Shown here piece by piece: positions 1 through 58,357 of a stretch of 64,000 nt of DNA; the first letter of the stretch is position 1; every line of letters starts with the position of its first letter. The stretch comes from Carcharhinus amblyrhynchos (Eukaryota). The DNA lies in contig OZ336878.1 in the NCBI GenBank assembly GCA_965287045.1, positions 105,772,001 through 105,836,000 on the forward strand. The letters are read 5' to 3'. A program made the translations under genes and the position numbers. The notes beneath the pieces are model-generated. The model did no database searches, was not told where the DNA came from, and saw only the letters and a list, made by a program, of their open reading frames with translations.

Positions 1-5
1 TCGTT
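1..5 (-). CDS. Probable start of microexon 25, cut by the window edge (ER...)
   Basis: gtagtattgcag|AACGA; lies 592 nt after exon 24, close to the 573-nt intron between paralogous exons 7 and 8; only 5 nt are visible. Confidence 0.5.
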
Positions 6-597
6 CTGCAATACTACTGACAATGATGTATATTTGAACACCGTTTATACGTCTGTGTTAACTTCGTGCCGTTTGCGTTGTCGCATGAACAATCACCACC
101 ATAGTTTGTTCTGTGTAATTATTAAGTATACCTTTTCTGTAAGACTGCTTGTGTTTTAGAAAGATCAATGCTGCTTGAAACAATTTTGCGCCTTCTACTT
201 TACTTGATGTATCAAATCCGAAAGTGGTGCATTGTTTTTCAACCTTCTGTTCAGCATCATTCGAATAAAGTAGGAAAGCATGAGCAGAGTATTCAGGTTA
301 TGAACTGTGCAGCATATCTCCGTCTTTCTATCGATCTATTATCTGGCTGTTTATCTGACTGTTCGTCTATCCGTGTATGTAGATGTCAATTACTTGTATT
401 GTTTTTTTTAGTCTTTTTTTAAAATTTGGTTTAGCGAGACATGTAGTGCATATATTGGCGTTTTTTGAAGCAAGTGCATGCTATGTTCTCACAAGGTTGA
501 ATGTTGTGGGGGGGGGGGGGGGGATTCATTTTCCATTCTGAAAACTGTGTTTATAGAAACAAGAAAAGTTTATATTAAGAGAGACAAACATGCTCAC

Positions 598-633
598 CAA
601 TATCTTTCCGAATTATTTGCAATTCCTTTAATT
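598..633 (-). CDS. Microexon 24 (36 nt), ELKELQIIRKDI
   Basis: gttttattttag|AATTAAAGGAATTGCAAATAATTCGGAAAGATATTG|gtgagc. Confidence 0.9.
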
Positions 634-901
634 CTAAAATAAAACAGCCAAATTTGTATATATTGTGTTTGTAAGTCAAACCACATTCACCACTAATTTG
701 CAAAACTATCCTAAACTACCTGCAGGAAAACGACAGGGGGAATGAACGGAAAATGTGTTTCGTGGTGGAATCACGCTGAAGCTGCTGTAAATGGCGGAGG
801 ATTCTGCTTTGCAAGTAGAGGCTTGTGCGGTCACATGTGAGGCCAAGGGGAAACGTTCCTTCTTCGAGGAGTTTAAATCGGGGAATGGGGGTAAATTAGA
901 T

Positions 902-1137
902 ACAGTAAAAAGTCTGACAACACCAGGTTTAAGTCCAACCGATTTATTTGATAATACTCACAAGCTTTCGAGGGGACTGCCTCTTCGTCAGGTGAATGGA
1001 ACTCTCCATTCACCTGACGAAGAGGCAGTCCCCTCGAAAGCTTGGGAGTATTATCAAATAAATCGGTTGGACTTAAACCTGGTGTTGTCAGACTTTTTAC
1101 TGTGTTTACGCCAGTCCAACGCCGGCATTCCCACATC
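902..1137. mobile_element. Penelope-like-element-derived palindromic non-autonomous insertion with 11-bp TSD
   Basis: Arms 902-1000 and 1005-1103 are reverse complements with one mismatch (960/1045) and a 4-nt loop ACTC. A 34-nt tail follows. Direct repeat GTAAATTAGAT at 891-901 and 1138-1148. Confidence 0.85.
956..997 (-). ncRNA. Minimal type I hammerhead-like ribozyme motif (mirror copy at 1008-1049 on +)
   Basis: ATTCAC-CTGACGA-A-GAGG cagtcc CCTC-GAAA-GCTT-GTGAGT: core CUGANGA/GAAA, stem II, palindromic minimal stem III and stem I pairing. Such motifs are known from Penelope-like elements. Confidence 0.6.
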
Positions 1138-2288
1138 GTAAATTAGATGGTCAGGGGTTTCAAAACTATTGCGGGTTTCTGATCTGCTTATTATCGGTTG
1201 AAGCTCGGATTTGTCGTTTTGGAAACTTGGGTCACCTGATGAAGAATATTTCCAGTTGGTTTGTGATCTACGTGTAGAGTTGGGCTGTAGTGGTGATTGC
1301 ACGGGCAAATTCTATTTGAATTCGGAGATTGGGAGAAGTTGGCGATATTATTTGGGAGAAGCCATAGAGATGTGGTTTACATTGAGCGAGAGGGGCGTTT
1401 GGAGTTTCCTGGGGAATCTCGAATGTCTGACGAATCACATGCCTGAATTGACCTTGGCGCTGCAAGCAGCTGGATGGATGCGAGTAAAGATTGTATTTTT
1501 TATCACAGTTTTCTTTGTAATTCTTAGCGTAACTCTGTTGAAACAATCAAAGTTAAAGATTTTCAGATGTGCCGGGGGAGGTACGAGCATTAGAAGACGT
1601 AATTGGACACTCAAACGTATCAATACTTGCAAAATACAAGAAGCAAAATTGGAAAGCACCATCAAATATTCAGCATAATATGAACATGTGAAACAGTGTA
1701 CGACAGAAAACGCAAAAAAAAGCAGATATTAAGGTTTCGAATCAAATGATCACAAAATAATTGGAGGTGACATCAAATGAAGCATTGGGAAAATAAAACA
1801 TACGCCGTAAGTGTTAAAATTAATGGAAGACACTTAGCGCATCCTCGTTGGGCAGAAAACAGAAAGATAAACGGTGATAATTATTAGCTCATCTTTCGTA
1901 TTCGTGTAAAATTTAAATTATGCGTGTGTTTTTGTTGTTGGTGGCAGAAATGGCGGCGGGTTAATTGGTAGCACACGGGGCGGAATATTTAGTGTCGTTT
2001 CCCTATTCCAGTGGACATCTCCCCCACAGATATATTCTATGACTGAATTTGCAGATCATTGCGTTTGTTCTTGTTTATAGCATATGAATTACCTAACCTC
2101 GTTGTTTTTATCTATCACTGATGAATGGTGATCCAGATGAATTATTAACTTTGTTTCTATCTGCAAGGGCACGGCAAGATCTAAAACGAACTTCCAGTCC
2201 CTTCCATGTAATATTTCGGAAGTGTCTAATCTTGGATTATAACTGCGTTCTTATTCAATTTTTTTTCAGCAGAAAAAAAAGTGCTCAC

Positions 2289-2315
2289 CAGTTTTAGAAT
2301 GCAAAATCCGTTCTT
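2289..2315 (-). CDS. Microexon 23 (27 nt), EERILHSKT
   Basis: gtttatcttcag|AAGAACGGATTTTGCATTCTAAAACTG|gtgagc. Confidence 0.88.
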
Positions 2316-3689
2316 CTGAAGATAAACAAACAACACTAAACAATTGGAATGAATATATTACAAGAATGCACTTAGAATTTAACCTGTTACGAACATTAGT
2401 ACTGTAATATCACACGTATCTCTGTTTTACTACTTAATGCCTATTTTCCAGCACTTATTTCTTGCCACGAATTAGTACTTATGTACGTTTTGAATGCGTT
2501 ATTTATTTGTCCTGAAATGCATGATCGCATCTAATTTTACTGGAAGTAAAATGATGCTCCTGATAAATATTTCCTCGTGACGTTCCATGATTTAGTCTTA
2601 AAATTAAGCCCAACATTTCGTTTTGAGAAATAAAAGCAAGCCGGCTTTCTACATAATACGTGCAAACGTTTGAACAGCTGCATTTACTGCAATTTGTTTC
2701 GGTTAGTGATGAGCTTGAAGAGAAAAGCCGCATAACATCCCACGAAGGCGATATACAATCACAGTGAAAATTCATTTCAACAAAATGTAGGCTTTATAGG
2801 TGTATCCTGTGAAGGAAATGGCATTTCATTACCTAGACGACTTGAGAAGAGTTATATCCTCCAACGAATGAATGTTAATTCAAATCAAGAATTGTCCATG
2901 ACAATGTGGTGATTCCATGCATTCATGATTCTCTCTCAAAGTCCTGTATAATTGGTAATGATTACACTATTTTTACACAATTCTCTCACTGGTTTAGTGG
3001 CAAGAACTGTATTCAGTGGCTCACCATTTTTTTTCTGATGGCAACATCTCTTTTTGTCACGAGGCCATTCCAGAACCATTTGCTTTGATATTGACAATTT
3101 TATCTATTGTCGAGTTCCATATTGCAATTAATGGGAATTCCATCAAATCTACGAAATGCATGATTAATTATTTGTACTTAGTTCCATATGATTCAATCTA
3201 TACCTCCAATCTTGGGGAAAAACAGAAGGCGTTGAGTGACTTACAATTGCAGTGGCGATAGCTTTTTTTAACATCACACTGCTCACTCATCTACTGAAAC
3301 AATCAATCTTCCATAATTTAAAGAGTTACAGAACTTTGCAATATAATGTTTCCAATATGTCATTGTATAATTATGATGATCTGCTTCATTCCTGATACTG
3401 AAGACATGTTAACATGTATAGATACCTAATAATCCAATTAGTGCCACGCTTAGTAAAATGTTATATATTTAAAAACGTCTCAATTTTAAATCCACTTTGA
3501 ATTAATGCTCCCACATCAAGGATGTTGCGGTGGTGGGGGGAGGGGTGGGGGGTGGTTCTGGAGGGATGGGGGTGTGCGTGAGGAGGGTGGCAGCTTTTGG
3601 AAGTTCCCAGGTAAGTGTAAGCCCACTGGTTGCTGAGCAGGTTTAACTGAACCTGAACATTTCAAACAGAACAATTTAAATCATTAACT

Positions 3690-3920
3690 TGTGATGGTTC
3701 AGCAACTTTGACACAGATACAGCTGGGCTCATAGGGCCCCACTGAGCCATGTTGTGGATGTGGCATTGATGTACTGGGGAATTCCTCCAGGAAGAGTTCA
3801 TGCACAGGCTGTCCTGGAATTGTGCAAGAGAGTTAACTTTCTCTGGGCAACTTTTCTTGGTCGGAAAACATCTTACAAAGCGATTAAGACCATTAACCAT
3901 TGATGACTCTGCCATTTCCA
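3690..3920 (-). mobile_element. Tx1/L1-clade LINE 3' remnant
   Basis: Minus strand gcacaattccaggac...ggctcagtgggg resembles the Tx1 ORF2 C-terminus as recalled; highly diverged. Confidence 0.3.
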
Positions 3921-3975
3921 CCGTGACATTTTTCCTGAACTAGCATGAAGACAGGAATTTTTAACTTAATTGTAG

Positions 3976-4420
3976 TTGTACTCAACTCCGTTGCCGAGCC
4001 CTACACACTCAGCGCAGACACACCATACCGACATTAATGCCAACTTCAAACCCACAGAACACACAGCTGAACCCCCACTCCACACCAACCCCAACATTCA
4101 AATGGATGACAGTTACCTTCCACGTTTAGCCCCACAAAGAAAACACACCTGCCGGACAGATTGAACCCAACAATAAACATCCATATATATGTCTAGCCTG
4201 ATTTATACTCTTCCCCCTTGTCTGAGTGAGGAAAACCTGTCTGCTGATCCAAAATACCGCCTGGCCTCAACAACACCTTCCCCTTCCGAACCCGTACTTC
4301 CCAACACCCGCACCATCCCCATTGTCATCCAACTGCGACAAAGCCGCTGGTCCTTCTTTGGCGCCGACTCCGGGTTATGCTGGGCGTTCATACCCAAATG
4401 CCTCAATATCGCGTCCTGAC
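3976..4420 (+). mobile_element. Very degenerate LTR-retroelement reverse transcriptase relic
   Basis: One frame gives ...IQMDDSYL...RWSFFGADSGLCWAFIPKCLNIAS, matching YxDD and LRSFLG..GYCR.FIP...IA in the expected order; internal stops present. Confidence 0.5.
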
Positions 4421-4891
4421 AGGCACATACTGTGATTGCCGGTTGGACGTTGGCCACAATAGTCTCGGTATTTTTCGTTGCATTATCCAAATTTAGTAGC
4501 TAAATACCTTCGAGTAGTTTAAATTATCGACAATCATTTGCCTGCTGGTTGTCAGAAGTCTCATTTCCAAAAGAAGAGACCAGAACGTAGTTGCAATTTC
4601 TGTGTAATAGATCAAATATGCCACTTGTTTAACATTTCTTAAATTCATATTTACAATATATTAGTTTTAGTATTTTTTTTCGCAAAGAGCTGTGAACTGC
4701 AAAGCAACTAAATGTTTAAAACTGAAATTTGGTCATAAGTTTGATTTGGGTGCTTCTGGTCATTACCACATTCGCCTTAATTTGAATGGAAAACAGTTTC
4801 AGCTTAGCTTCACCCAATCAAACTTTTATCAAGAAACGATCATATATAATCACATTCTGCTCTGTCCTGTATTTTATTCATGGCTACTCAC

Positions 4892-4918
4892 CATCTACTT
4901 TGACGTGCTCCAGAAAAT
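4892..4918 (-). CDS. Microexon 22 (27 nt), DFLEHVKVD
   Basis: atttccttcag|ATTTTCTGGAGCACGTCAAAGTAGATG|gtgagt; HxxxD as in exon 43434-43460. Confidence 0.88.
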
Positions 4919-5062
4919 CTGAAGGAAATTATTGAACAGGTGTCAATCAAAATACGTATTGCTTGAAGAATGTAAGTAAAGATTTTAATTTAGGAAATTT
5001 ACAATAAAAAGAATGCCGGAAACATACTTCCGAAGGCCGGAAATCCTGACAGGGCAATTTAC

Positions 5063-5089
5063 CTGACTCTTTCTTCTTCAGTTGTTTCT
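5063..5089 (-). CDS. Microexon 21 (27 nt), EKQLKKKES
   Basis: gttcaattgaag|AGAAACAACTGAAGAAGAAAGAGTCAG|gtaaat. Confidence 0.83.
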
Positions 5090-5429
5090 CTTCAATTGAA
5101 CAATTATATTGTTAATGCATAATAATGAAGTTAAGCATAATCCAGTACCGAATTTCGTCATTTCAACCAAAGCACGGAACAAGGAATTTGAGAAAGAAAA
5201 TATACATTAACGGAAGTTGACAGCATTCCAGAACGAATGGCTTCGGAAATATTGATTCAGATTCCATTAACAAATGTATTGATGAAACTTAATCTAGCTT
5301 ACTTTTTCCACAAACATGTGGATCAAGATCAATAATTCGATTAACAGCTTTCGTGGCCACAAACAGTCTGAAATAAATATTTCTTAATTGTGTTTAATAA
5401 TTTATTTGACAATCATTTGTCATTATAGC

Positions 5430-5655
5430 TAACATTCAAGGTAAGAAAAAGAGTTTTATAGAGATTTGACGAAAATAATTTTAGTCAGAGGGTGGCGGGA
5501 ATATAAAACTGCTTGAATGAGTGGGGACATTCAATATTTAAAGAAGCATTTTGATGAGAACTTGAAACATTGCAAAGCTAGAGATTAAGTGTTGGAAACT
5601 GGACTAAAATATGCAGTTGCTTGATAACTGCTGAAGGGCCCCTTTCTGTGGTGAA
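5430..5655 (+). mobile_element. CR1 LINE 3' end fragment (old)
   Basis: tttagtcagagggtgg...tttaaagaagcattttgatga...gctgaagggcccctttctgtg is a CR1 3' terminus pattern. Confidence 0.6.
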
Positions 5656-5682
5656 GACATTGTCTCAATTATACCTTCTTAC

Positions 5683-5718
5683 CTGCGCTCTGCAAGGCTT
5701 CGTTGGCATGGTCTAATT
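5683..5718 (-). CDS. Microexon 20 (36 nt), ELDHANEALQSA
   Basis: gattttttttcag|AATTAGACCATGCCAACGAAGCCTTGCAGAGCGCAG|gtaaga. Confidence 0.9.
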
Positions 5719-6149
5719 CTGAAAAAAAATCAAATTATTACCGAAGTGCAACATAATGCACAACAGTAATGTAGTGCTTATTTTATTACAAACTAAGAAT
5801 ATGTCAATAATTTGATGACAAAGGGCATACATTCAAAATAGATGAAACAGGGAATTCTCGGTATTGGACGGGAAGAATTAATTTAATTCCGTAATATTAC
5901 TTGTATTATTCCATTTGCATCGCCCTTTGTTTGTTTTCCAACATGGTTGCATGTTAGCATTCATATTCAAAGTCCTCAAATCAAGGTATTTTAGTGGACT
6001 GAAGCCTATGAATGTGCCCCTAGTATTGACCAGAAACAATCTCATTCCTGCACCTCCCCCCCCCCCCCACCCCGCACACACAGTCGGAGACGGAGATTGC
6101 TAGTTGAATAGAACCCGACGAAAGACTTAAAATTATTGCAAAATTATCG

Positions 6150-14715: not shown

Positions 14716-14742
14716 CTGTTATTTTTTGACGCAGATACTTAT
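14716..14742 (-). CDS. Microexon 19 (27 nt), DKYLRQKIT
   Basis: cattcaatatag|ATAAGTATCTGCGTCAAAAAATAACAG|gtaagt; LRxK as in exon 57822-57848. Confidence 0.87.
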
Positions 14743-15508: not shown

Positions 15509-15532
15509 CATGACCTCCAGAACTATTCTCCG
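15509..15532 (-). CDS. Microexon 18 (24 nt, spacer type), AENSSGGH
   Basis: ttagtttgcag|CGGAGAATAGTTCTGGAGGTCATG|gtaaat. Confidence 0.72.
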
Positions 15533-17734: not shown

Positions 17735-19419
17735 AAGAACATAAGACCATAAGAACATAAGAAATAGGAGCAGGAGTAGGCCATCTAGCCCTTCGAGCCT
17801 GCCCCGCCGTTAAATAAGATCATGGCTGATCTGTCGTGGCTCAGTTCCACATTCACGCCCTCTCCCCATAACCCTTAATCCCCTCGCTTATCAAAAACCC
17901 ATCAACCCACGTCTTAAAAATATTTAGCGAGGCAGCCTCCACCACTTCAACGGGCAGAGAATTCCAGAGATTCACCACCCTTTGAGTGAAGAAGTTCCTC
18001 CTCAACTCCGTTCTAAACCGCCCCCCCCCCCCACTTTATCTTGAGGCTGTGCCCCTCGTCCTACTGTCCTTTCTGAGCGGGAAGAGTCTCTCCACCTCTA
18101 TCCTATCCATCCCATTCATCATCTTAGACGTCTCAATGAGACCTCCCCTCATTCTTCTAAACTCTGACGAGTACAAGCCTAGTTTATTCAGCCTCTCCTC
18201 ATAGCTCAACCCCCTCAACTCCGGTATCAGCCTAGTAAACCTCCTCTGCACTCCCTCCAAGGTCAAAATATCCTTGCGTAATTGCAGCGACCAAAACTGC
18301 ACACAGTACTCCAGCTGTGGCCTCACCAATGCCCTATACAGCTGCAGCAAGACCTCCCTACTTTTATAGTCAATCCCCCTCGCTATGAAGGCCAGCATCC
18401 CATTCGCCTTCCTGGCCACCTGCTGCACCTGCAGGCTGGGTTTTTGAGGCTCATGCACAAGGACCCCGAGGTCCCTCTGCACCGTCGCATGCTGCAGTTT
18501 TTCTCCACGTAAGTAATAGTCCTTCCTACCATTATTCCTACCAAAGTGGACCACCTCGCACTTGCCAACATTAAATTCCATTTGCCAGTTCCTGGCCCAT
18601 TCGCCCAGCCTATCTGGATCCTTCTGCAGACTCTCCACACCCTCCGCACAATTTGCCGTTCCACCAATCTTGGTGTCATCAGCAAATTTCGACACCATAC
18701 ACTCGGTTCCCTCCTCCAGATCATCTATATAAATGGTAAATAGCTGAGGCCCCAGCACCGACCCCTGGGGCACTCCACTAGTCACCAACCGCCAATCCGA
18801 ATAGTACCCATTAACCCCCACTCTCTGCCTCCTATTTGACAGCCAATCCTCTATCCACGCTAACACCCTACCCCTAACTCCATGCCCCTTACCTTCTGCA
18901 ATACCCTCCTGTGTGGTACCTTGTCAAAAGCCTTTGAAAATCAAGAAACACCACATCCACCGGCTCTCTTCTATCCACCGCCCTAGACATATCCTCATAG
19001 AACTCCAATAAATTTGTCAGACACGACTTCCCCTTAACGAAACCGTGCTGCGACTGGTCTATCAAGCAATTCTCCTCAAGATGCCTCGCTATTTCCTCCT
19101 TGATGACGGATTCTAACATTTTACCTACAACAGACGTTAAACTAACCGGCCTATAATTCCCTGCCTTTTGCCTGCCACCCTTCTTAAACAATGGCGTAAC
19201 ATTAGCCGTTTTCCAATCTTCCGGCACTTCTCCGGAATCCAGCGGCGTTTGGAAAATAACCACCAAGGCATCCATTATCACCTCCGCCATTTCTTTCAGA
19301 ACCCTCGGATGCATTCCATCCGGTCCTGGGGACTTGTCCACAATCAGCCCCTCCAGTCTGTCGAGCACCGCCTCTCTCGTAACAATAATGTCATTGAGAC
19401 CCTCCAGTCCTACCAACTT
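17735..19419 (-). mobile_element. Young 5'-truncated CR1 LINE (sister of the 46325-50680 copy)
   Basis: ORFs 18889-19416 and 18036-18866 are nearly identical to ORF2 47900-50587; frameshifts near 18935 and near 18050; (TTCTTATG)n-type tail at 17735-17765. Confidence 0.96.
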
Positions 19420-20029
19420 TATGAATAATGGTGCATTGTTCCCTGAACTCCGAACAGTTTTCCCCGGTCGAGTGCAATAAGTGTGAGGAATTGATCAGTT
19501 CAGCTCATCAGTGAGAAATGAACGTGTTTCAGATATTTTAGTTAGGATAATTTCGGACTGGCAGAATAAACATCAACCAAAATAGATTTATCGTCGCAGG
19601 AGTTTAACGAAGCAGTAATAACACAGAATATGAAATAAGGGGATAGGGAAGAGTTCGTAAGGGCTTCAATGAAATACTCACGTGCAACTTTCAAACTCAC
19701 ATTTATTACACAAAGCGCATTAGCAATGTTTAACCACTGAGTTAAAATATTACAATGTTCTCCTACAGTAACATCTTGGGAAATCCATTGACAACCATGC
19801 ACATTCCAGACTCCGACGATCTCCTGAGACCATCCTGACGCCAAAAATGTTCAGAGGGTAGCGTAAGAAATATATATGCATGGATGTGTTCATCGAAAGA
19901 TACACCAGAATAATTGGCCCATGCGTACGTTGGTCCTTGCAATCGTGCACTGCATGAATGACCTTGCATTTCCAGGCGGTTTGTGTGACCCACTTCAGAC
20001 AACAATATAGTTTCGATGCTCACGCTCAC

Positions 20030-20065
20030 CTTTGTCCTCCAGAACTTGTTTCAGTTGCATTATTT
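20030..20065 (-). CDS. Microexon 17 (36 nt), EIMQLKQVLEDK
   Basis: catctttaaaaag|AAATAATGCAACTGAAACAAGTTCTGGAGGACAAAG|gtgagc; paralogous to exon 22491-22526. Confidence 0.87.
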
Positions 20066-20507: not shown

Positions 20508-20534
20508 CTGTGTTTGCCATCTTCAGCTTCACTT
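20508..20534 (-). CDS. Microexon 16 (27 nt), EVKLKMANT
   Basis: ttcggcttatag|AAGTGAAGCTGAAGATGGCAAACACAG|gtataa. Confidence 0.83.
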
Positions 20535-22060: not shown

Positions 22061-22087
22061 CTAAATTATGATCCACCACTTGTTTAG
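22061..22087 (-). CDS. Microexon 15 (27 nt, spacer type), AKQVVDHNL
   Basis: ttttatcatttcag|CTAAACAAGTGGTGGATCATAATTTAG|gtaaac. Confidence 0.8.
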   Translation of the reverse strand, partial: LNKWWIII

Positions 22088-22490: not shown

Positions 22491-22526
22491 CCTTTTCGTC
22501 AAGACGTTTTTTCAATGTTTGTATTT
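22491..22526 (-). CDS. Microexon 14 (36 nt), QIQTLKKRLDEK
   Basis: ttctttcttttcag|AAATACAAACATTGAAAAAACGTCTTGACGAAAAGG|gtgagg. Confidence 0.9.
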
Positions 22527-25216: not shown

Positions 25217-25243
25217 GCGTATTTTTATCATGCAGGTCCGTTT
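25217..25243 (-). CDS. Microexon 13 (27 nt), (Q/E)TDLHDKNT
   Basis: ctttgcctcacag|AAACGGACCTGCATGATAAAAATACGC|gtaaga. Confidence 0.85.
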
Positions 25244-26604: not shown

Positions 26605-26640
26605 GTGGAGGTATTCCTTTAGTTTCGTTCATTTTTATTT
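26605..26640 (-). CDS. Microexon 12 (36 nt, spacer type), EIKMNETKGIPP
   Basis: cattttatcag|AAATAAAAATGAACGAAACTAAAGGAATACCTCCAC|gtatgg; fills the spacer slot of the 36-spacer-27 pattern; the donor is weaker and the peptide less coiled-coil-like. Confidence 0.55.
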
Positions 26641-30879: not shown

Positions 30880-31059
30880 NNNNNNNNNNNNNNNNNNNNN
30901 NNNNNNNNNNNNNNNNNNNNNNNNNNNNNNNNNNNNNNNNNNNNNNNNNNNNNNNNNNNNNNNNNNNNNNNNNNNNNNNNNNNNNNNNNNNNNNNNNNNN
31001 NNNNNNNNNNNNNNNNNNNNNNNNNNNNNNNNNNNNNNNNNNNNNNNNNNNNNNNNNNN
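30880..31059. other. Assembly gap (180 N)
   Basis: Run of n. Confidence 1.
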
Positions 31060-33757: not shown

Positions 33758-33793
33758 CTGTGTCTCTTACACGTTTCCTTAGCTTTTCTATTT
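33758..33793 (-). CDS. Microexon 11 (36 nt), EIEKLRKRVRDT
   Basis: attttgtttag|AAATAGAAAAGCTAAGGAAACGTGTAAGAGACACAG|gtagga; similar to exons 22491-22526 and 20030-20065. Confidence 0.88.
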
Positions 33794-36828: not shown

Positions 36829-36855
36829 CTGAAGTCTTCACAAGCAGTTCATTTT
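36829..36855 (-). CDS. Microexon 10 (27 nt), KNELLVKTS
   Basis: atgctttgcag|AAAATGAACTGCTTGTGAAGACTTCAG|gtaaac. Confidence 0.87.
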
Positions 36856-38746
36856 CTGCAAAGCATCAGAGGTTAATGCATGGGAATATGTCGCTCATAA
36901 AATAGGTTTGCTTACGTGTAGAATAGCTTATCTGTGAAGTGTGTATTGACAAACATTAAAACATGAAATCGAATACATGTCACTCATCCCCCATCTCCCC
37001 AGGCATGGTATCCAAACCTATTTTAGTTGCATACCTTCAAACATTGGAGCTCAGTTTATATATATTTTACTTCGCCCTTCAGTTTTCAAACAATGCACAT
37101 TCAAAACCAAGATATTTGTTGAACTTCGTAGAAGAGAATTCCTCATATTGTTATTCCAGCTCAACTCTTATTCCACAAAGCAAATCGAATGAATTGTAAT
37201 TAATGGTTTGTTGACGTACCAGCATCATCAAGCTTTTTTTTCAGGTCACTTGCATCTAAAGGGAACAACTCAACTTTAATATTTGTGGATTATCTGCTGC
37301 CTAATTTTGTTCGTTAGTCTGTTGTAAATCCGTATTTTGGAAGCGAAGTTCGTGACCGGTGGCTGTGATTGTAGTTAACTATTTTGGTAAGCAGGAATGC
37401 AAATAAAGAAAAAAACTACAATTCTGAATAATGGCTTGGTTTCAATTAGATTTTCTCTCATACCCGCGCTGAAGGAGGAGCGGAATAAATTGCTTCCTGG
37501 GTGAAGTGAAATTAATTGTGACAAGATTAAATGCGCAGTGACACTCCAAAACGTTTGTGGTATGTTGCAGAAAACTGAGGAACGAAGAGCAAAACATATA
37601 TAACGACTAACGGATTTATTTTGTTTAATTTTAATGAATAGATCGCGTCGAACCAACAGTTATCATTCCTTTTTTTCTGGGAAATGCATTTCTTTACAGG
37701 CTCACGCTATCTTCACTGTTGCAAACTTTTTTTTTAAAATAAGGGCTGATGTTTCATGAAACTTTGCCTCTGGCACTCCGTTTGATTTGGTGGTGCTACT
37801 GCCTGATAAGCTGAATATGGCGATTATAATAACCTTAAAAAATATCTGCTTGCTGCAGTTGTCATCGAACAACTAGCCATACAATGTAACAAATTAAGTT
37901 GAATGAAGAACCCCAAACTCAATCAATTTGATGTTTATTTCGTTGGAGCTCTTTTCTAACAATATGGCTTCACGGACAGCGGAGGATAGATAAGGACGAT
38001 GACTCGCAATGATTCACTGGAACAGTGGAGGAGATGGATTGGAATTATAAATTCGGAAACAAAAACTTTGCAATATTTGGTGGCTGACAGAAAGGGAGAA
38101 AGTGTGACTCGAACAAATTGAATACCATTTTCAAATTGCCAACACGGGACTTAAAATCAGAATATCGTTTTCTGTGACGAATCATCATCTTGTTTTCTCT
38201 GGTTAAAATATGATCTGGGATTCCTACAGCTATATAGTCCCTTTGCTATTAAACAGGGGCTAAAAACAGGTCATGATGTGAACGAACAAACAATTCCAAA
38301 CCATCAATAAAGCGTGTAAAGAAGCTCCCGTGTGTTTGCCACATGCTAGATCAGGTTGTGCAAAGATCTATGATTTGAAGGCAAAAATTGTTTCGGTTTT
38401 GCATGGAACAAAACTTCGTGTAGGGGTGTCCGCAACTTTTCCCGTGCAGTAAAGCCGCGAACAATCATGTCCAGCATGTCAATCAGGAATCATATCTTCA
38501 TCATGTAGCTTTAAATTGTTGCTTCTTTACAATATGACAGTTGTGTCTGTCTTGATGAGCACAAAATCAGTAGGAGCGTATAGGGTCAGCCAGAAATCAA
38601 AGGGTCAACGTTGTCCAAAGTGTACGGCCAAAGTTTATTGATAATTTTAAAAAATCCAGATTCATTGAACTTTGAGTATCTTACGGACAAATAACCCATG
38701 CAACAATAAACACATTTTCTTTTTAAATGTAGGAACTGATACATAC

Positions 38747-38773
38747 TGCCAAGCTTACGAAGTTCTTCATTCT
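38747..38773 (-). CDS. Microexon 9 (27 nt; alternative 15-nt form 38759-38773), ENEELRKLG
   Basis: gtttggtacag|AGAATGAAGAACTTCGTAAGCTTGGCA|gtatgt; an internal C|gtaagc donor gives an in-phase 15-nt variant. Confidence 0.75.
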
Positions 38774-41139: not shown

Positions 41140-41166
41140 CTGCATCTTTCAAACGCAACAGTTGTT
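41140..41166 (-). CDS. Microexon 8 (27 nt), EQLLRLKDA
   Basis: cttttcctggaag|AACAACTGTTGCGTTTGAAAGATGCAG|gtaatg. Confidence 0.83.
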
Positions 41167-41739: not shown

Positions 41740-41775
41740 CAAGGTCTTTCCTAATGGCTTGTAACGTATCCTGTT
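41740..41775 (-). CDS. Microexon 7 (36 nt), EQDTLQAIRKDL
   Basis: gtcattttag|AACAGGATACGTTACAAGCCATTAGGAAAGACCTTG|gtaagc; shares LQxIRKD with exon 598-633. Confidence 0.9.
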
Positions 41776-42865: not shown

Positions 42866-42892
42866 CTGCTTTCAATTTATGTATCTTCTCTT
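42866..42892 (-). CDS. Microexon 6 (27 nt), EEKIHKLKA
   Basis: gaacttgcag|AAGAGAAGATACATAAATTGAAAGCAG|gtaaat. Confidence 0.85.
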
Positions 42893-43433: not shown

Positions 43434-43460
43434 CGTCAGTTTCCAAGTGAGTTTTCATTT
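43434..43460 (-). CDS. Microexon 5 (27 nt), EMKTHLETD
   Basis: atgaattcag|AAATGAAAACTCACTTGGAAACTGACG|gtaagc. Confidence 0.85.
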
Positions 43461-43637: not shown

Positions 43638-43664
43638 CTACGTCCCTGCGCCTCAGTTCGTCCT
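43638..43664 (-). CDS. Microexon 4 (27 nt), EDELRRRDV
   Basis: tttttatcaacag|AGGACGAACTGAGGCGCAGGGACGTAG|gtaaga. Confidence 0.88.
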
Positions 43665-47763: not shown

Positions 47764-50587
47764 ATGAAGGTGCTTTATCTGAATGCGCGAAGCATTCGGA
47801 ATAAAGTGGATGAGTTGGTGGCGCAGATCGACACAAATGGATATGATCTGGTGGCCATTACAGAGACGTGGCTGCAAGGTGACAGGAACTGGGAACTGAA
47901 TGTCCAGGGGTATCAAGTGTTTAGGAAGGATAGGCAGGAGGGAAAAGAGGGGGGGGGGGGGCATTGCTCTGCTGATTAAGGATAGCATCGGGGTGGTAGC
48001 GAGGGATGATATTGGAGCCAAGGAGCAGAAGGTGGAATCGTTGTGGGTAGAGATTAGGAACAGCAAAGGGAGGAAGACGCTGGTGGGTGTCGTCTATAGG
48101 CCCCCCAATAATGATCTGGAGGTGGGGCGGGCTGTTAACGCGCAAATAAGTGCGGCGTGCAGGAATCGGACGGCCGTAGTTATGGGGGATTTCAATCTGC
48201 ATATTGATTGGTCGACCCATGTTGGACGCGGTGGGCTCGAGGAGGAGTTCTTGGAATGCTGCAGGGATAGTTTCCTCGAACAGTGTGTGTTGGAGCCGAC
48301 GAGGGAGCGAGCTATCTTGGATCTGGTACTATGTAATGAGGCGGGTAGAATTAGGGAACTTGCGGTGAAGGATCCTCTTGGGGAGAGTGATCATTGTATG
48401 GTGGAGTTTCTGGTGCAGATGGAGGAGGAGAAAGTGGGTTCCCGGACACGCGTCCTTTGTTTGAACAGAGGGGAGTACGGTAGGATGAGAGAAGAATTGG
48501 CGAATGTGGACTGGGGGAGCGCGTTGGAAGGTAGGTCTGCCGAGGAGCAGTGGAGGATCTTTAAGGAGATCTTTCTTGGTGCTCAGCGGAAATTTATTCC
48601 GATGGTCAAAAAGGACTGTAGGAGGAGAGGTAATAAGCCGTGGATAACGAAGGAGGTGAAGGAAAGTGTTAAATTAAAAGCGGAGGCGTTTAGAGTAGCT
48701 AAGAGTAGTGGGCGAGAAGAGGATTGGGAGAGGGTTAAATGTCAACAAAGATTGACAAAGAAGTTGATAAAGGAGGGTAGGAGAAACTATGAAGCTGGGC
48801 TCGCGCTTAATATAAAAAAGGATAGCAAGAGTTTTTATAAATATATAAAAAGGAAGAGGCTGGCTAGGGTGAACGTTGGTCCCTTAGAGGATGAGAAGGG
48901 GGACTTAGTAGTAGGGGATGGGGATATGGCGGAGATCTTGAATATCTTTTTTGTTTCGGTCTTCACGGAGGAGGACGTGAATAATTTGCCGGATGTTAGA
49001 GATGGAAAGGTGGTAGGACCGGAGGGTCTCGATGACTTTACTGTTACTAGAGAGGTGGTGCTTGACAGACTGGAGGGGCTGATTGTGGACAAGTCCCCAC
49101 GACCGGATGGAATGCATCCGAGGGTCCTGAAAGAAATGGCGGAGGTGATAGTGGATGCCTTGGTGGTTATTTTCCAGACGTCGCTGGATTCCGGGAAAGT
49201 GTCGGAAGGTTGTAAAGCGGCTAATGTTACGCCGTTGTTTAAGAAGGGTGCCAGGCAAAAGGCGGGGAATTATAGGCCTGTTAGTTCAACGTCTGTTGTA
49301 GGTAAAATGTTAGAATCCGTCATCAAGGAGGAAATAGCCAGGCATCTTGAGGGGAACTGCTTGATAGAGCAGACGCAGCACGGTTTCGTTAAAGGGAAGT
49401 CGTGTCTGACAAATTTACTGGAGTTCTATGAGGATGTGTCTAGGGCGGTGGATAGAAGAGAGCCGGTGGATGTGGTTTTTCTGGATTTTCAGAAGGCGTT
49501 TGACAAGGTACCTCACAAGAGGTTATTACAGAAGGTAAGGGGGCATGGAGTTGGGGGTAGGGTGTTAGCGTGGATAGAGGACTGGTTGTCAAATAGGAGG
49601 CAGAGAGTGGGGGTCAATGGGTGCTATTCGGATTGGCGGTTGGTGACTAGTGGGGTGCCCCAGGGGTCGGTGCTGGGGCCTCAGCTATTTACCATTTATA
49701 TAGATGATCTGGAGGAGGGAACCGAGTGTAGGGTGTCGAAATTTGCTGATGACACCAAGATTGGTGGAAAGGCAAATTGTGCGGAGGGTGGGGAGAGTCT
49801 ACAGAAGGATCCAGATAGGCTGGGCGAATGGGCCAGGAAATGGCAAATGGAATTTAATGTTGGCAAGTGCGAGGTGGTCCACTTTGGTAGGAATAATGGT
49901 AGGAAGGATTTTTACTTACGTGGAGAAAAACTGCAGCAGGCGACGGTGCAGAGGGACCTCGGGGTCCTTGTGCATGAGTCGCAAAAACCCAGCTTGCAGG
50001 TGCAGCAGGTGGTCAGGAAGGCGAATGGAATGCTGGCCTTCATCGCGAGGGGGATTGAATATAAAAGTAGGGAGGTCTTGCTGCAGCTGTATAGGGCATT
50101 GGTGAGGCCGCAGCTGGAGTACTGTGTGCAGTTTTGGGCGCCGTACTTACGCAAGGATATTTTAGCCTTGGAGGGAGTGCAGAGGAGGTTTACTAGGCTG
50201 ATGCCGGAGTTGAGGCTGTTGAGCTATGATGAGAGGCTGAATAGATTAGGCTTGTACTCGTTAGAGTTTAGAAGAATGAGGGGAGATCTCATTGAGACGT
50301 ATAAGATGATGAATGGGATGGATACAATAGAGGTGGAGAGACTCTTCCCGCTCAGAAAGGATAGTAGGACTAGGGGGCATAGCCTCAAGATAAAGGGGGT
50401 GGGGGGGCGGTTTAGAACAGAATTGAGGAGGAACTTCTTCACTCAAAGCGTGGTGAATGTCTGGAATTCTCTGCCCGTTGAAGTGCTGGAGGCTGCCTCG
50501 CTAAATATTTTTAAGACGCGAGTTGATGGGTTTTTGATGAGAGAGGGGATTAAGGGTTATGGGGAGAGGGCGGGAATGTGGAACTGA
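47764..50587 (+). CDS. CR1 ORF2: apurinic endonuclease plus reverse transcriptase (one frameshift in the G-run 47949-47961)
   Basis: YLNARS, AITETWL, GDFN, LDLV, SDH; FQKAFD, GVPQGSVLGP, KFADD; open to the TGA at 50587. Confidence 0.95.
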
Positions 50588-51184: not shown

Positions 51185-51445
51185 ACTAAAACAAAAAAAA
51201 GGAAAATCTCAGCAGATCCGGAAACATCGTTAAACGTAGAAAAGAGCTGTCGTATCTACTCCAGATGGCGCTTTATCGAAGCTTTGACAATCGGGAATCG
51301 AAATGTAAGGTTTCTTTTCTGCCCTTGCAGATGCTGTAGACATGCTTTCCTCCCAACCCCCCACCCCCCCCCCCCCCCCCCCCCACCCCCGCCCAGCATT
51401 TTCTCTTTCGGTTTCGGATTCCAACGTCCGCAGTTGTTTGTTGTA
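51185..51445. mobile_element. Degenerate Penelope-derived palindromic element
   Basis: Imperfect inverted halves ggaaaatctcagcagatcc...catc / gatgctgtagacatgct...cagcattttctc centred near 51280, with a C-run insertion. Confidence 0.6.
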
Positions 51446-52328
51446 ATCATATTCCTTTGGCATTTAGTTTTGTTACTGTTGCAGTATTACTCACTCACCC
51501 TATCCTCCGTTTTACCATCAAGCAGGATCATAACTGGAACAGCCATTCAATACAGTCGTTGGGAGGGTTTGAGCCCTGGGAATTTTGCGGAATGTAACGA
51601 GATGATGTTCTCCAAATCCCGCCCACTGTCTATAAAGCACAAGTAAAGATTGCATTGTAATGGTGCTTAATTATTTTGGCTAATGCAGCTCCAACAATCC
51701 TCAAGAAATTTGAAACCGCCCTTGGGCAAGGCAGTATTTATTTTATTTTCACACAACATCTATTCACTTCGACATGCAATCACTCCAACATGATGTTAAG
51801 TTCGTTGCAACCGTAAACAAGGTACATTGCAGCAACTCGGTAATAGACCTTTGGTAACACATTCCAAACCTTGGCATTTTTCCAATACAAATATAAGAGA
51901 AAGTGTGGAAACTGATTCCAAACATTGGCATTTTCACTTCCAAACGATGCATCTTCCTGGCATGAAAATCTTTCGCCATGCTTTCTGTGCCGTTGTGTCG
52001 GAACTCTTATATTCATTTCCGAACTGTTATGCATCTTAAATTCATCACATGGGCAGCAGAGATTCAAAAATTTGTTTCTCCACCATCGCCCGAAGAGCAT
52101 TCCTGGATGACTCATAAAACGTATGCCACAACCAACAACGCCGACGTACGTATGAAGACAAATAACCTCAACGTTCGTAGAACCATTTCAATTTTGCACT
52201 GTTAAATACTCAGCAAAGACAACCTTTATAATCTAATTAGATGATGTCGGATCTGAAACTATACTGTACTGTTGAAATTCAACGACATAACTGAGATGAT
52301 TTTTATGTTTTTGTTTTGTGTTCCATAC

Positions 52329-52364
52329 CTTTACTTTGCAGATCTCGTTTCACATTTTCTAGTT
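52329..52364 (-). CDS. Microexon 3 (36 nt), ELENVKRDLQSK
   Basis: aaatttcag|AACTAGAAAATGTGAAACGAGATCTGCAAAGTAAAG|gtatgg; 21/36 nt identical to exon 5683-5718. Confidence 0.88.
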
Positions 52365-52779
52365 CTGAAATTTAATTGAAAACATATGGCATACAACATT
52401 GACGTTTTATTGCAAAGCGGCAAGTATTTCAAATTAGTGTCGAATGATGTAAGTTTCAATAAATTAATCGCAGAATAAATATCTAAGAGTCTAGGTTGGA
52501 ACAGCAGTCTCAAAGTAACCTTCAATGAAGAGGTAAACATCGTTGGATTGATATATCATTCGTCTCTTTACATAGTTTAGACTGGAGATCCACATTTTAT
52601 ATGCATACTTTTGAATCAGGCGTCTCAGAAAAATTGAACGTATGTGATAATTGTGTAACTTCCCTGAAAGTTTAGAAACGTTAGGGAAAGTCAGCCTATA
52701 TACTCATATCGGTACCAATTTGCATAAATCAATAAGATTAATTAACTTTTTTGGCGAAACTCCACGTTTGTAAGTTTGT

Positions 52780-53230
52780 GTTAGAATGTTTGGTAAGTGG
52801 GTGAAAATCAAATGAGTTAGCTGGATAAATGTGTCGAGCATATTGGGGATTTTGGAGTGAAGTTGATTCTGTGGCCGATGGTGCGTTCATCGGGCTGTGG
52901 GTGTTGCACGAGAATTACGCTTTTCCGGAAGTGGTGATGTGGTGGGCGAGCATTGGTTGCTGTGGTTGAGTTTTATTTGGTCAATGAGAGATTCACGGGA
53001 AATGAGAGGGATCATATGTAAGTAGAAATATAAGTAAGTTCGGAGAATGGTACGGGTAGAATAATATGACGGTGTAAAAGGTCAGTTGTGGAAGGTAGAC
53101 AGATTTGTGTATCTGGGCGCTAGGTGTTTGTCGGGTATGATTGAGGTCCATGACATGGGGGATTTGGGTTTAATTAGGGTTTGTATGTGATAGTCAGACT
53201 TGGGTCTTGCCGGCTGTTGGTCGATGTTCG
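52780..53230 (-). mobile_element. Very degenerate LTR-retroelement RT-connection/RNase H relic
   Basis: TLIKPKSPMSWT...FHN*PF.PSYYSTR...TAR* resembles L.K...F.WT / PF / PVAYYS / ARW; C/A-rich strand. Confidence 0.4.
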
Positions 53231-53429
53231 AACAATTGCACCTTGCAGAATGAATTTATGACCCTTTTTTGACTTAGTATGCAACTAATGTTTAATTCAG
53301 TTTTCCACTGCGGGGTTTAATTATTCTTATATCATGGCAAATCACGGAAAAAAAAGGAGAACAACAACGTTGTTTCTTGAACAGAGTAGTGCAATTATCA
53401 ACGCAACAATGAATGGGAACGATTTCCGC

Positions 53430-54550
53430 CTCAAGTCGATTTTTAAGATTGCTGATGGCAATTGTGCAATGGATTGGATCTCAAACAATGACATGGCGGA
53501 GTTCAGAAAAGGTATAGAAAATTTGTTGAAATAGTGCGACAATATCTTCAATAACAGTAAAACAAAGGAGACAACCGTCGACTTAAGGGAACGTAGTAGA
53601 GGAATTGTCCCCTACTACATGAACGGTAATGAAGTCAAAGTCGTCGATTTCTTCATGCCTCCAGGAGTCCAGATCAGCAACGACCTGACCGTATTCCTTT
53701 ACTCTCACTTGATATTTAAGGAAGCTCACCAACGCCTCTATTTTGTCAGGAGACTAAGGATATTCGCTATGTCTGCCAAGTCTCCCAAATTTTCATAGAT
53801 GTACCATCGAGAGCGTCCGTTCGGGATGCATCGAAGCTTGGCGTAGCTCTTGCTCTGACCAAAGCTGAAAGAAACTCAAATGGATTATGAACGTAGCCCA
53901 ATCCATCATACAAACTATCTTCCCATCCATTGACATTGCCTACACTCCTGCTGTCTCGGAAAAGCGGCCAACACAAACAAGAACACTTCACCGGCATACT
54001 CGCGTAAACCTTTCTTCATTAAAGTAAAATTGAAAACACATACCAATTGACTCAAGAAGAGCGGGGACGGAACGGTAGCATAGTGGTTAGCAATGCTGCT
54101 TCAGAGCCAGGAACCCGGATTTGGTTCCCGGCTTGGGTCACTGTTTGTGGAATTTGCACGGTTTGCCCGTATCTGTGCGAGTTTTCTCTGGGTGGTCCGG
54201 TTTCCTCCCACATTCTGAAAGACGGGCTAGTTCGGTGCATTGACCCGAACACCTACTGACTGTGGTGATTAGAGAAAGTTCACAACATTTTTGTAGTGTT
54301 AATGTAAGCCTTACTTGTGACAAATGCATAATCTTTAACTTCATTTGAACTTCACCCGTGCTGTCATTTGAACTTTAAATCGGCGTACCATATACTGCTG
54401 ATGTCTTAATCCTATCTCTAACTATAGCAACTTTCTTGTACCCTCTCCTGCCTTCTCCCTGAGTTAACTCTAAGAACAGAATGTTTTGTTTGTGGATCAG
54501 ACAGGAAAAAAGATACAATTTATCCCAATACCTGTGACAACAAATACATC
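53430..54550 (+). mobile_element. Rex1/Babar-clade LINE 3' portion, split by a SINE
   Basis: KIADG..MDWISNNDMAEFRKGIENL, SKTKETTVD, KEAHQRLYFVRRLR, RCTIES; tail tacctgtgacaacaaa. Confidence 0.85.
54062..54345 (+). mobile_element. tRNA-derived SINE nested in the Rex/Babar element
   Basis: ggtagcatagtggttagcaatgctgc...ggttcccggcttgggtcactgt; tail gtaagccttacttgtgac. Confidence 0.85.
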
Positions 54551-55117
54551 AAGTTAATGGATTTGAGGATCCCTTCAAAGAGTCACTGTATATAACGTGA
54601 AGGGAATCCTGAAAAGAGGTAAACCTGACACTTCACCTCACCCAGTGCAAGTTGCAACTGCAGAATCAGTTAAAAACAGCATCACCCGATTTTGAATGCG
54701 CCATATTTACAAATTCATACTCTCCCTCCGGCATTCGTGGGTCGGTTTCCATTGCCGAAATCTGCCTCTCTACAATAATCTGACACGAACTGGGCAGAAA
54801 TTAATGATCGAATAATGACTAGAAAAATGATTAATGTGATGTTTTCTAACTGGATATTATATCCAGGCATACAAAATATTGTATCATATTGCAGAATATT
54901 GGACATTTCAAAAAAAAATCACGATTTACGCATTAACTTCCAATGAAGAAAACAGTCATTAAAAAATATTAGGTATGTGGCCTGATGAAGAAGCTATCGT
55001 AAATTTAGAATATATATATATATATACATATATTTATTTATGACTCTATGCAACGAGCGATGGAGAACATTTCGAAATCTTTCCATAATACCCATGTTTT
55101 CTGCTACATTTGTTTTG

Positions 55118-55387
55118 TTTTATTAATGTCACATGTAGGCATGCAATAACACTACAATGAAGTTACTGTGAACATCCCCTGCTTGCCAAACTCCAGTACC
55201 CGTCTGTGTACACAGGGGGAGAATATATCATGGTCAATGCACCGAATCAGCACACCTTTCGGACTGTGGGAGAAAATCAGAGATCCCGCAGTGAAACGTG
55301 ATGACTCTGATCAATCAGAGGCCCAAGCCGGGAATTGTACCCACTTACCTGGCGCTGTGAGGCAGCAGTGCCCAGCACTCTGGCAGC
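55118..55387 (-). mobile_element. tRNA-derived SINE (same variant as 15727)
   Basis: ttattaatgtcaca...aatgaagttactgtgaa...ctggcgctgtgaggcagcagtgc. Confidence 0.85.
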
Positions 55388-57821
55388 ATATGAGTGTGGA
55401 CAAAGTATTAGTTTGTGGGTGGTATTAACATAGGGGGGAGCGTACGTGCTGAAGATGACGTGCATCACCCACAGAAGGACAGGTGAGAATCTCTTTAGAT
55501 TAGGGGAACAGGCAAAATTTTTGCCAATGGAAAACGGCGTAGTAAAAAAAAAAATCGCAATCATGCGCATCGCTGGAAAAAAAGTAACGGAAAGTAATAT
55601 TATTTAAATAAAAAATACGACAGGATACTTCAGCACCAACAACATTGGGTGTTCTTCGCACATAACTCACAAAAAGCCCGCATGGCAGTTCAGCACGCAG
55701 TTTTGAATGCCAAAGGTAATTTTGCCCAGTGCTTGACGTAGATTTGAGTCATGCAATGGGGAAGTCTAAAAATATACAGCATACTTGTTTACCCACACCT
55801 GGAATACTGCGACCTTTGTTGTCCCCTCGTCTCAGAGGAAAAAGAAATATATATATAGGAGGCAGTCCAGTGAATTTTCATCGGTTTGATCCTTGGTCTT
55901 CAGTTAGTTTTATATCTGATGAGGTTCAGTAATTGGTTCTGTTTCTCAACATAGTTAAACACAATGGCATACGTCCTGATTGAGACACATATGATTCTTG
56001 GGAGTCAAGGCAGGGTAGCTTCTGAAATTTTGCTCCCAATTTTGGAAGAGTGTAAGCTGAGGGCGTGCAATCTCAGAGAACGATGTCTCCGACGAAAGAG
56101 AGAGAATAGCACAATATATTCCCCCTGATTGTAGTAAATCTGTGGAATCGTTTACGGAAAGTGGCTGTGAAGATTGCCACATTCAGTATGCCTAAATAGG
56201 CAGAATTTAATCAGTGAAAGTTTATTGAGATAAGGTGGGAGACCGACGTTTAGAATAATTAGATCAGAAATTTTCAATTAAATAACAGAGATGGTGGGCC
56301 GAATCGCCAACTTACAATCTCTCGATAATTTCAAACTTGCATATTCCTGAACTGAGAGGAATGTTAACCCTGCAACTGATTTGCATCGAGCAGGACACAG
56401 AACATAAAAATCCAAAATTTGCAAGCAGCGGTTCAATGTATGGAAAGGGACAAACGTTCTGATTTTTTTTTTGAAATTAGCACTTACTGTCTCCGGCCCT
56501 GTGTGGTGAAATAAAGCTGATGGTACTATCCACAAGCTCCCCGATAATCCTGAAAGACAGGCGTTTTCTTTTCGGATTGCTGAAGAGAACTCTCTCAATA
56601 ATCAAATTACTCAAAACAATATGACTGCATGTCATTTCTAGCTATTGAAAACGAATCAAATTAAGAATCCGGAGGATCGTAGGAAACACTTGTTCATGTA
56701 GGAACGTTCAACGAGCCTTTCCTACGATGGAAACACATCAACCATGATTTTGTTTTAGCAATCTTGCAATTGTTGGCTAAGATGAACCAAAGTCAATTGA
56801 CTTTGCCAACACTGGCACACTTTACGACTTGTTGTAAGCATATGATAGTTATGTGCCCTTTCAATCAGAAGTTAATTCTTCAAGTCGGGCAAATGTGTTT
56901 CAATTATCAAAGAACCAGTTCGGACAGGCAAACTTTAAGGGGTCCAATCAGAGCTGGCATGTCAAACAATCAGTAGGCGTTTCCCCCTAAGATTAGCTGC
57001 TGTCGTTGTTGGCGTCCGAATGAGGGCAAGACAAAAAAAAAATCCAAACATAGGTAGCTTTGGTTTTTTTTTAACAAATATCAACATTTGCAATTATTTT
57101 TTACATGAATGACCCGCACTTACATCTGTCAAATATTTACAAAAGCGTTGATAACTCGTTATCTTCACACGCACACATCCTGCCATGCAACTTCACATGC
57201 TAATACAATCGCCAGTTCAGAGCTAATACGTAATATTGAAGAATTCATCTCGAAGTGAGAAGCGAACGTGTTTTTCGCTTTTAGCAAGGCGGCATTCCAA
57301 TGAGCCTCAGCTAACAAATATCCTGTTGCATTTAGAAAGTTGGAATCGCAACGATACACAGACCTCGTGAGGTCTGAGTATGCCCGGGGCCAGCAGCAAA
57401 AGCCATACAGGTGCATCTATTACCAGTGCAATATTACTTACATTTCATGTTTTGTGGCAGTTATCAAAACACATTTGTCAAACAGCTCCGCCTCATATCG
57501 GGGTGTGCTTGTTCTGATATAGCAAGTACTAAATCGATATTTGAGCTGTTTTTAACGGTTCATTATTGTTTCCAATAGTTAATTACTCATATCAAAAACA
57601 TATATTTAGAATAGGGACGGTATCCGATCCAGACTTCGTAGGCTGTGTGTTTTAACATTCGCAAACGATACCGACAGCTAGAAAGTTTAACTGTCGTGAA
57701 CTGCAATTAAATGAGCTCCTAAATAGAATGTCATGTTGGTATGTGTTATAACTCTTCCTTTCGTTCAGTTCTGTAATTGCATCATTTACCGATTTTTTTT
57801 TTCAAACAAGAAGCCACTCAC

Positions 57822-57848
57822 CCACTGTCTTAGCACGCAACTTTTGTT
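57822..57848 (-). CDS. Microexon 2 (27 nt), EQKLRAKTV
   Basis: ttctattgcag|AACAAAAGTTGCGTGCTAAGACAGTGG|gtgagt. Confidence 0.88.
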
Positions 57849-58333
57849 CTGCAATAGAACGTAAAATAGTTGGTGCGCATAATAATGAAAAAAAAACAGA
57901 AGAAATGAAAATGTATCACCTATGCTATGAACACCATGCTTAATGATAAAATGGTGATGGACGGTAACCGCTTCTGTCTGTTTTTGCTGTAGGCTTAGTA
58001 GTGAAAGAAACGTTTTTTTTCTCACAAATAACAATTCACCTTTGCATGTGATTTAAATAATATTGGTTTTGCAATCTCAGACTTTTAAATTGTTGATGGT
58101 TACCCTGTCGTAATATTTGTTGGGAATGAGTCCCCCGTTGCCGCACATTTCATTTGGTTCCAGGGCTTGGAAAATTACATCTGCTTACCCATTCCCTAAT
58201 TCGTCACCAATTGTCTGCTGCAATATTTAGTTGAAAACACGGATTATTAAAACTGTGTTTCCTGATATATTTCCACTTTGTTACTGCCTACTCAAGAGAT
58301 CCTGCACCGCTAAAGAAACGGACTGCTCCTTAC

Positions 58334-58357
58334 CAAAATCTAATAGCGTCTGGCTTT
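58334..58357 (-). CDS. Microexon 1 (24 nt), (x)SQTLLDF
   Basis: gtcattttcag|AAAGCCAGACGCTATTAGATTTTG|gtaagg; phase 1-1; positional counterpart of the 24-nt exon at 15509-15532. Confidence 0.8.

Follow-up and report, generated by a model that had tools for sequence, protein, structure and literature searches.

We examined a 64,000-nucleotide (nt) stretch of Carcharhinus amblyrhynchos DNA (contig OZ336878.1, here C9, positions 105,772,001-105,836,000; hereafter the window), in which a first-pass annotation had described 24 minus-strand microexons, each bounded by AG and GT and of symmetric phase 1, as a hidden gene for a long coiled coil. Coordinates are given in window numbering, extended in both directions with plus and minus signs, unless marked C9. 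De novo scans for AG..GT-bounded exons, which took in all of the window but a masked stretch (30880-31059), recovered all 24 microexons on the minus strand and added a 25th of 36 nt (37255-37220, minus strand) that had been missed. In the order of the predicted product, the exons lie on the minus strand at 58334-58357 (24 nt, phase 1-1), 57822-57848 (27 nt), 52329-52364 (36 nt), 43638-43664 (27 nt), 43434-43460 (27 nt), 42866-42892 (27 nt), 41740-41775 (36 nt), 41140-41166 (27 nt), 38747-38773 (27 nt), 37220-37255 (36 nt), 36829-36855 (27 nt), 33758-33793 (36 nt), 26605-26640 (36 nt), 25217-25243 (27 nt), 22491-22526 (36 nt), 22061-22087 (27 nt), 20508-20534 (27 nt), 20030-20065 (36 nt), 15509-15532 (24 nt), 14716-14742 (27 nt), 5683-5718 (36 nt), 5063-5089 (27 nt), 4892-4918 (27 nt), 2289-2315 (27 nt) and 598-633 (36 nt).

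AG and GT bound 25 of 25 exons, which sum to 750 nt, or 1.3% of the span. The phase-1 frame reads without a stop over all 25, as had been stated for the peptide of 24, with one junction residue changed by the exon that had been missed. When the earlier 24 exons were joined, each of the two other frames contained 25 stops. The last two residues of the earlier peptide are unsupported, and the next exon found lies about 3.2 kb past the left edge of the window. The exon lengths do not strictly alternate, and the 27+36 pair proposed as the module is only one of several. A further 27-nt candidate upstream (62185-62211, minus strand) combines a strong acceptor with a weak donor and residues that are not of coiled-coil type, and it is listed as uncertain.

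Chance controls were run with untrained splice scores. The plus strand and shuffled sequence, which the first-pass annotation had named as the null, fell far below the minus strand: the generic scan of the window gave 21 minus-strand and 0 plus-strand candidates, and 40 third-order Markov shuffles yielded 2.1±1.2 with a maximum of 5. Triplet lengths other than those of the microexons yielded 2-5 candidates in the window. When the scan was widened to 782 kb, the same lengths stood out, with 41 minus versus 2 plus candidates at 27 nt, 28 versus 2 at 36 nt and 14 versus 4 at 24 nt; no other length between 9 and 90 nt gave more than 9. Three window exons have weak donors, namely those starting at 38773 (which ends in A), 26640 and 25243 (which ends in C). 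The exon at 26640-26605, which has two prolines and is proline-ended, is the least secure of the 25, and skipping it raises the heptad periodicity by 0.39. Taken together, the window exons are almost certainly coding.

The product of the window has the periodicity of a coiled coil, in agreement with the earlier description. Its hydrophobic residues give a spectral peak at 3.48 residues, and the heptad power of the 25 exons in genomic order is 3.19, compared to 2.06±0.29 when their order is shuffled, a value reached by none of 300 shuffles. For the earlier set of 24 exons, one of 300 shuffled orders reached that of the genome. Since the genomic order holds the heptad register, the exons could be skipped in frame and yet are not freely interchangeable. 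The 24-nt exon at 15509-15532 is rich in glycine and serine and is likely a hinge. The window segment is free of cysteine, unlike the upstream part of the unit (+340,000 to +547,000, minus strand), where cysteine-bearing 36-nt exons are paired with 18-nt exons.

Contigs of two related organisms were compared over window positions 4850-5780. The three exons in this interval (5683-5718, 5063-5089 and 4892-4918) are the same in both organisms: none of 39 substitution sites and no indel falls in these 90 of about 900 bases (~10%), which would occur by chance with a probability of about 0.02. Introns differ by about 2-5% in the two organisms. For the first organism, none of the 40 of 585 differences that were listed lies in any of three exons, a number too small to count by itself; likewise, no substitution in exon 42866-42892 was among the relatives' differences listed. 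Elsewhere in the array, duplicated exon cassettes have a pooled ratio of nonsynonymous to synonymous change (dN/dS) of about 0.56. Recent tandem duplications of such cassettes were seen at +157,000 to +228,000 and at -109,000 to -157,000; they comprise three exons (27+30+36 nt) and four exons (21+36+27+27 nt), and the introns of the first set are still 75-83% alike.

Microexons of this kind extend far beyond the window. Sequence was read over 1.46 Mb surrounding the window and over 270 kb at the far end, with 27 samples of 10 kb taken in the interval; the 1.73 Mb of contiguous sequence is the basis of the negative results at the protein level given below. A fixed census rule, which was trained on the array and detects 20 of the 25 window exons, counted 184 minus-strand versus 8 plus-strand exons between +550 kb and -600 kb (78 of the 184 being 27 nt long, 61 being 36 nt and 4 being 21 nt), 67 versus 2 in the far 270 kb and 49 versus 3 in the samples, of which 22 of 27 were positive. 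The empty samples were considered as unit boundaries and ruled out, as one of them sits inside a gene matched by a catshark protein. The whole window (1-64000, minus strand) lies inside an array that runs from about +547,000 (C9:106.32 Mb) to a terminal B30.2 exon at C9:103,955,186-103,955,686. Between two intact B30.2 exons, we estimate the array at about 2.36 Mb and 400-500 exons, a scale far beyond the 58 kb first assigned to the gene.

The terminal B30.2 exon is preceded by similar microexons and is 63% identical to that of the catshark (Scyliorhinus canicula) protein XP_038671249, which has 945 residues. From residue 8 onward, up to and including the B30.2 exon, this protein is collinear exon by exon with the 245 kb at C9:104,199,469-103,955,186. 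The microexons continue upstream of the position of its start codon, which falls within the microexon run, suggesting that the public model is probably truncated. Upstream, at the other end of the array, the last exon of a gene at about +716 kb to +612 kb encodes SPRY (4e-12) and is 67% identical to that of the catshark 'TRIM39-like' XP_038672308; the gene matches XP_038672306/8/9 and its microexons map onto XP_038672308. Protein searches of C9 found only these two intact family B30.2 exons, flanking the array, and the nearest one on the strand of the window is 1.82 Mb downstream.

We considered an array with a single terminal B30.2 exon, but this was overturned by a broken B30.2 exon within the array at C9:104,388,734-104,389,232 (minus strand). 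It carries frameshifts and stops, is 69% identical to the terminal one and was missed by three protein searches. In the samples upstream of it, modules from the N-terminal part of XP_038671249 recur, which indicates tandem duplication of the whole gene, so the array most likely consists of tandem gene copies. A DNA profile was built from three B30.2 exons of C9. Its best match outside the training set, at about -371,400 (minus strand), has an E value of 1.5e-4 over 1.46 Mb and an acceptor-like start, and it lies inside a 55-kb, nearly exon-free gap that follows -344,010; on reversed sequence the profile gave no match. It is weakly suggestive of a decayed B30.2 exon belonging to the unit that holds the window. 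A B30.2-like peptide match at -599,403 was dismissed as chance. Six more family B30.2 exons were found on contig C16 (60.4-66.4 Mb), where six 10-kb stretches were read and five of the six had microexon candidates upstream; this is probably a second cluster. A V-set cluster and numerous other B30.2 exons lie on C9 as well (84-85.6 Mb and 96-112.5 Mb).

The catshark protein also ties the window itself to this family. Aligned against the modules of XP_038671249, the window product scored 287, compared to 185±16 for shuffled exon orders (maximum 236 in 300 shuffles). Within the alignment, exons 41740-41775 and 41140-41166 share 7 of 11 and 7 of 8 residues with modules of the catshark protein, and exon 38747-38773 shares 6 of 8 with the next module. 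The idea of a hidden coding gene of cartilaginous-fish origin is borne out, and we consider it very probable that the window exons belong to a family in which a coiled-coil rod precedes a B30.2 domain. Annotated relatives were found in Narcine, Callorhinchus, Hemiscyllium, Cetorhinus and Rhincodon. Public models named 'zinc-binding protein A33-like' or 'TRIM39-like' (XP_038671249 and XP_038672306-9 of S. canicula, XP_069775384-90 of Narcine, XP_042191566-8 of Callorhinchus, XP_060706632 and XP_078422387) share with the array the B30.2 lineage, its repeated coiled-coil modules in unchanged order and the lack of RING, Ig (immunoglobulin) or transmembrane motifs. They differ in that their names are automatic and that they are seemingly truncated at the 5' end, the longest (945 residues) accounting for 245 kb of the 2.36 Mb; no orthologue of the window stretch was among those retrieved. 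Isoforms of the models differ by internal blocks of 6 and 9 residues; if the models rest on RNA, as we assume, this suggests microexon skipping.

A tree with a midpoint root was built from 54 B30.2 domains (14 from the family, 15 from proteins with Ig motifs and 25 from proteins with RING motifs), setting aside 20 RING rows, rows with neither motif and isoform duplicates. A long branch (support 100/99, length 0.8) sets the 14 family domains, on one side, apart from all Ig-motif and RING-motif rows. By this tree, the family B30.2 is a lineage of its own, common to shark, ray and chimaera. On the features tested, the family belongs with none of butyrophilin, BG and TRIM. In the literature searched, supplements being outside the search, there was no description of this rod-B30.2 family and none for six of its accessions, so that the cartilaginous-fish family is apparently undescribed. 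A 'zinc-binding protein A33-like' is listed for catshark skin mucus in an excerpt of PMC10707392; the name is generic and cannot be tied to the family.

Three known systems resemble the array in part. Chicken BG proteins and the related zipper protein likewise derive a long coiled coil from many small exons, which excerpts of PMC4046983 and PMC8813856 describe as expanding, contracting and being alternatively spliced; in the latter excerpt, the coiled-coil tail of the BG-derived zipper protein affects actin-myosin. BG proteins carry a single IgV domain and a transmembrane segment but lack B30.2, and their exons encode 7 (sometimes 8) residues. The array, in contrast, counts its exons in the hundreds, most of them 9 or 12 codons long; we found none for Ig or transmembrane sequence, and the family ends in B30.2. 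Butyrophilins (BTN/BTNL) share the order of a heptad region followed by B30.2, as far as described in excerpts of PMC8813856, PMC12841164 and PMC7348870. Butyrophilins also combine IgV-IgC with a transmembrane segment, and their heptad region is short; for the array, neither Ig nor transmembrane sequence was found, its rod greatly exceeds theirs in length, and a long branch sets its B30.2 apart. TRIM-B30.2 proteins (TRIM39-like and others) share an oligomerizing coiled coil and a C-terminal, ligand-binding PRY-SPRY (excerpt of PMC8813856). In contrast to these, the family models have no RING, the locus has no RING or B-box match and hence no ligase module, and the coiled coil is spread over microexons. 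The exon design thus resembles the BG tail and the domain order that of a butyrophilin tail or a RING-less TRIM, but the tested features do not fit membership in any of the three.

On balance, we favor a reading in which the 25 window exons lie mid-way in a unit of about 0.9 Mb within a tandem cluster and would be spliced in order into a rod of about 1,900 residues. The unit itself more plausibly than otherwise runs from about +547 kb to about -344,000 or -371,000; it holds 161 minus-strand versus 6 plus-strand exon matches, or about 190 exons after correction. Each exon comprises 6-13 codons and is symmetric in phase 1, and owing to this symmetry cassettes could duplicate without frameshift, while selection probably holds their sequence in heptad register. 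The genes as a whole have most likely duplicated in tandem too, some of their terminal B30.2 exons then decaying, clearly at C9:104.389 Mb and probably at about -371,400. The rod, predicted to be soluble and probably cytoplasmic, would dimerize through leucines at the a and d positions and may act as a long tether or scaffold. As a coiled coil extends by about 0.15 nm per residue, 1,900 residues correspond to about 280 nm. By analogy, full members of the family may hold paired B30.2 heads at a set distance on a long spacer. The heptad region followed by B30.2 is seen in both the upstream gene and the terminal unit; the unit of the window has only the weak remnant at -371,400, and it would probably lack an intact head and form a headless rod that could pair with headed paralogues or bind the cytoskeleton, in the manner reported for the zipper protein derived from BG. 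Skipping of single exons would adjust the length of the rod locally.

Several observations weigh against parts of this reading. The junctions between window exons are predicted ones, and the minus-strand counts of the census are partly circular because its matrices were trained on this array. The catshark match reflects paralogous modules and not an orthologue of the window stretch. The remnant at -371,400 is weak, with E values of 0.1 and 0.47 with two other models and no match either with a model built from C16 only or at the protein level; a pyrimidine tract supplies part of its score. About 680 kb of the 950 kb at C9:104.22-105.17 Mb lie outside the sequence read, and since the protein searches overlooked one broken B30.2 exon, others may hide there. 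In none of the units was a first exon, a start codon or a promoter found, so a signal or anchor exon may have escaped notice. Among the 15 public family models, XP_060706632 alone has a hydrophobic stretch at its N terminus, and dN exceeds dS in 3 of 9 groups of duplicated exons.

A different reading makes the whole 2.36-Mb array one read-through gene of about 400-500 exons, in which tandem copies became fused as splicing skipped their decayed B30.2 exons, giving a rod of more than 4,000 residues with a single B30.2 head. All exons share one strand and one phase, intact family B30.2 exons were found only at the two flanks, most gap samples (22 of 27; 49 minus versus 3 plus) hold exons, those upstream of decayed heads still look intact, and the start codon of the catshark model falls within a run that goes on upstream. 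We nevertheless regard this as unlikely, given the 55-kb nearly exon-free gap after the unit of the window and the recurrence, after such breaks, of modules like the N-terminal half of XP_038671249. AATAAA signals also lie 1.5-1.7 kb past the putative remnant at -371,400. Beyond them is a 174-nt phase 1-1 exon candidate (-399,622 to -399,795, minus strand) whose splice sites are very strong and which encodes two acidic tyrosine motifs, matches no Pfam family and has no homologue; it may open the next unit, which would also speak against a single gene.

Less likely still is that the rod is a cytoplasmic tail or extracellular stalk, butyrophilin- or BG-like or of type II, whose anchor exon went unrecognized. 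Such a protein would fit the coiled coil plus B30.2 of butyrophilin tails (excerpt of PMC8813856), the small-exon design of BG (excerpt of PMC4046983) and the cysteines that recur at fixed positions upstream of the window. The link to B30.2 drawn in the first-pass annotation holds, in that flanking B30.2 exons were found; its suggestion of an Ig-superfamily membrane-protein tail is not supported, as no Ig, transmembrane or RING exon emerged in 1.73 Mb. A tblastn search of this sequence with 161 proteins (15 with Ig and 45 with RING motifs) matched only B30.2 exons and repeat fragments and no Ig or RING region. Among 116 open reading frames (ORFs) in three candidate boundary regions, none matched an Ig, transmembrane or zinc-finger family above the cut-off, the sole match being a transposase, and no V-set near the locus was among the best 150 of 1,793 candidates. 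None of the 15 public family models has an Ig, transmembrane or RING motif; five scanned with Pfam gave no RING or B-box family, and the 19-residue hydropathy window of the models peaks at no more than 1.53. In the locus, no convincing hydrophobic first or internal phase-1 exon for a signal or transmembrane segment was found, and scans for CpG-rich sequence gave 10 windows in 1.46 Mb, none at a unit start. A hydrophobic ORF at -413,844 was rejected as a signal exon as it has no suitable donor and sits after a rod exon. Together with the distinct B30.2 lineage, these results argue against such an anchored or secreted protein.

That the unit of the window is a decaying pseudogene whose exons are not yet eroded is very improbable, for although its B30.2 exon appears lost or decayed, three donors are weak and dN exceeds dS in some duplicates, all 25 exons are stop-free with AG and GT intact and the register kept, those compared are identical in two relatives, against intron differences of about 2-5%, and the putative remnant at -371,400 is much more eroded than the exons.

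The introns of the array hold other elements. An element of the long interspersed nuclear element (LINE) type at 47900-50587 (plus strand) has an uninterrupted endonuclease/reverse-transcriptase ORF of 895 residues; copies elsewhere in the region are 92-96% identical, and a partial copy lies at 18036-19494 (minus strand). An intronless ORF of 429 residues of the leprecan family, which we take to be CRTAP-like, lies at +202,270 to +200,984 (minus strand; Pfam TPR_leprecan, 7.5e-112). It is nested in an intron on the strand of the array, is present as a single copy in 1.46 Mb and is likely an intact retrogene. A retroviral-type element with gag, protease and reverse transcriptase occupies another intron (+424,893 to +421,321, minus strand). 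Upstream, the cluster is bounded by an RRM-like exon and a zinc-knuckle ORF (+746,203 to +779,719, plus strand), presumably RBM4-like.

These findings point to an old gene family, present in sharks, a ray and a chimaera, whose members annotation has truncated and mislabelled as TRIM or butyrophilin and which includes megabase genes built almost wholly of microexons. Such genes provide a natural test of how the spliceosome joins hundreds of exons of 27-36 nt when the introns are full of repeats, and of how a coiled coil can be built by duplicating one exon after another with its register kept. In the cluster, genes seem to be caught in the act of duplicating, losing their terminal exons and possibly fusing. 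If the 2.36 Mb were one unit, it would have more exons than titin, which has 363, and be invisible to standard annotation. A B30.2 lineage apart from those of TRIMs and butyrophilins may recognize a ligand of its own and contribute to immunity or cell structure in sharks.

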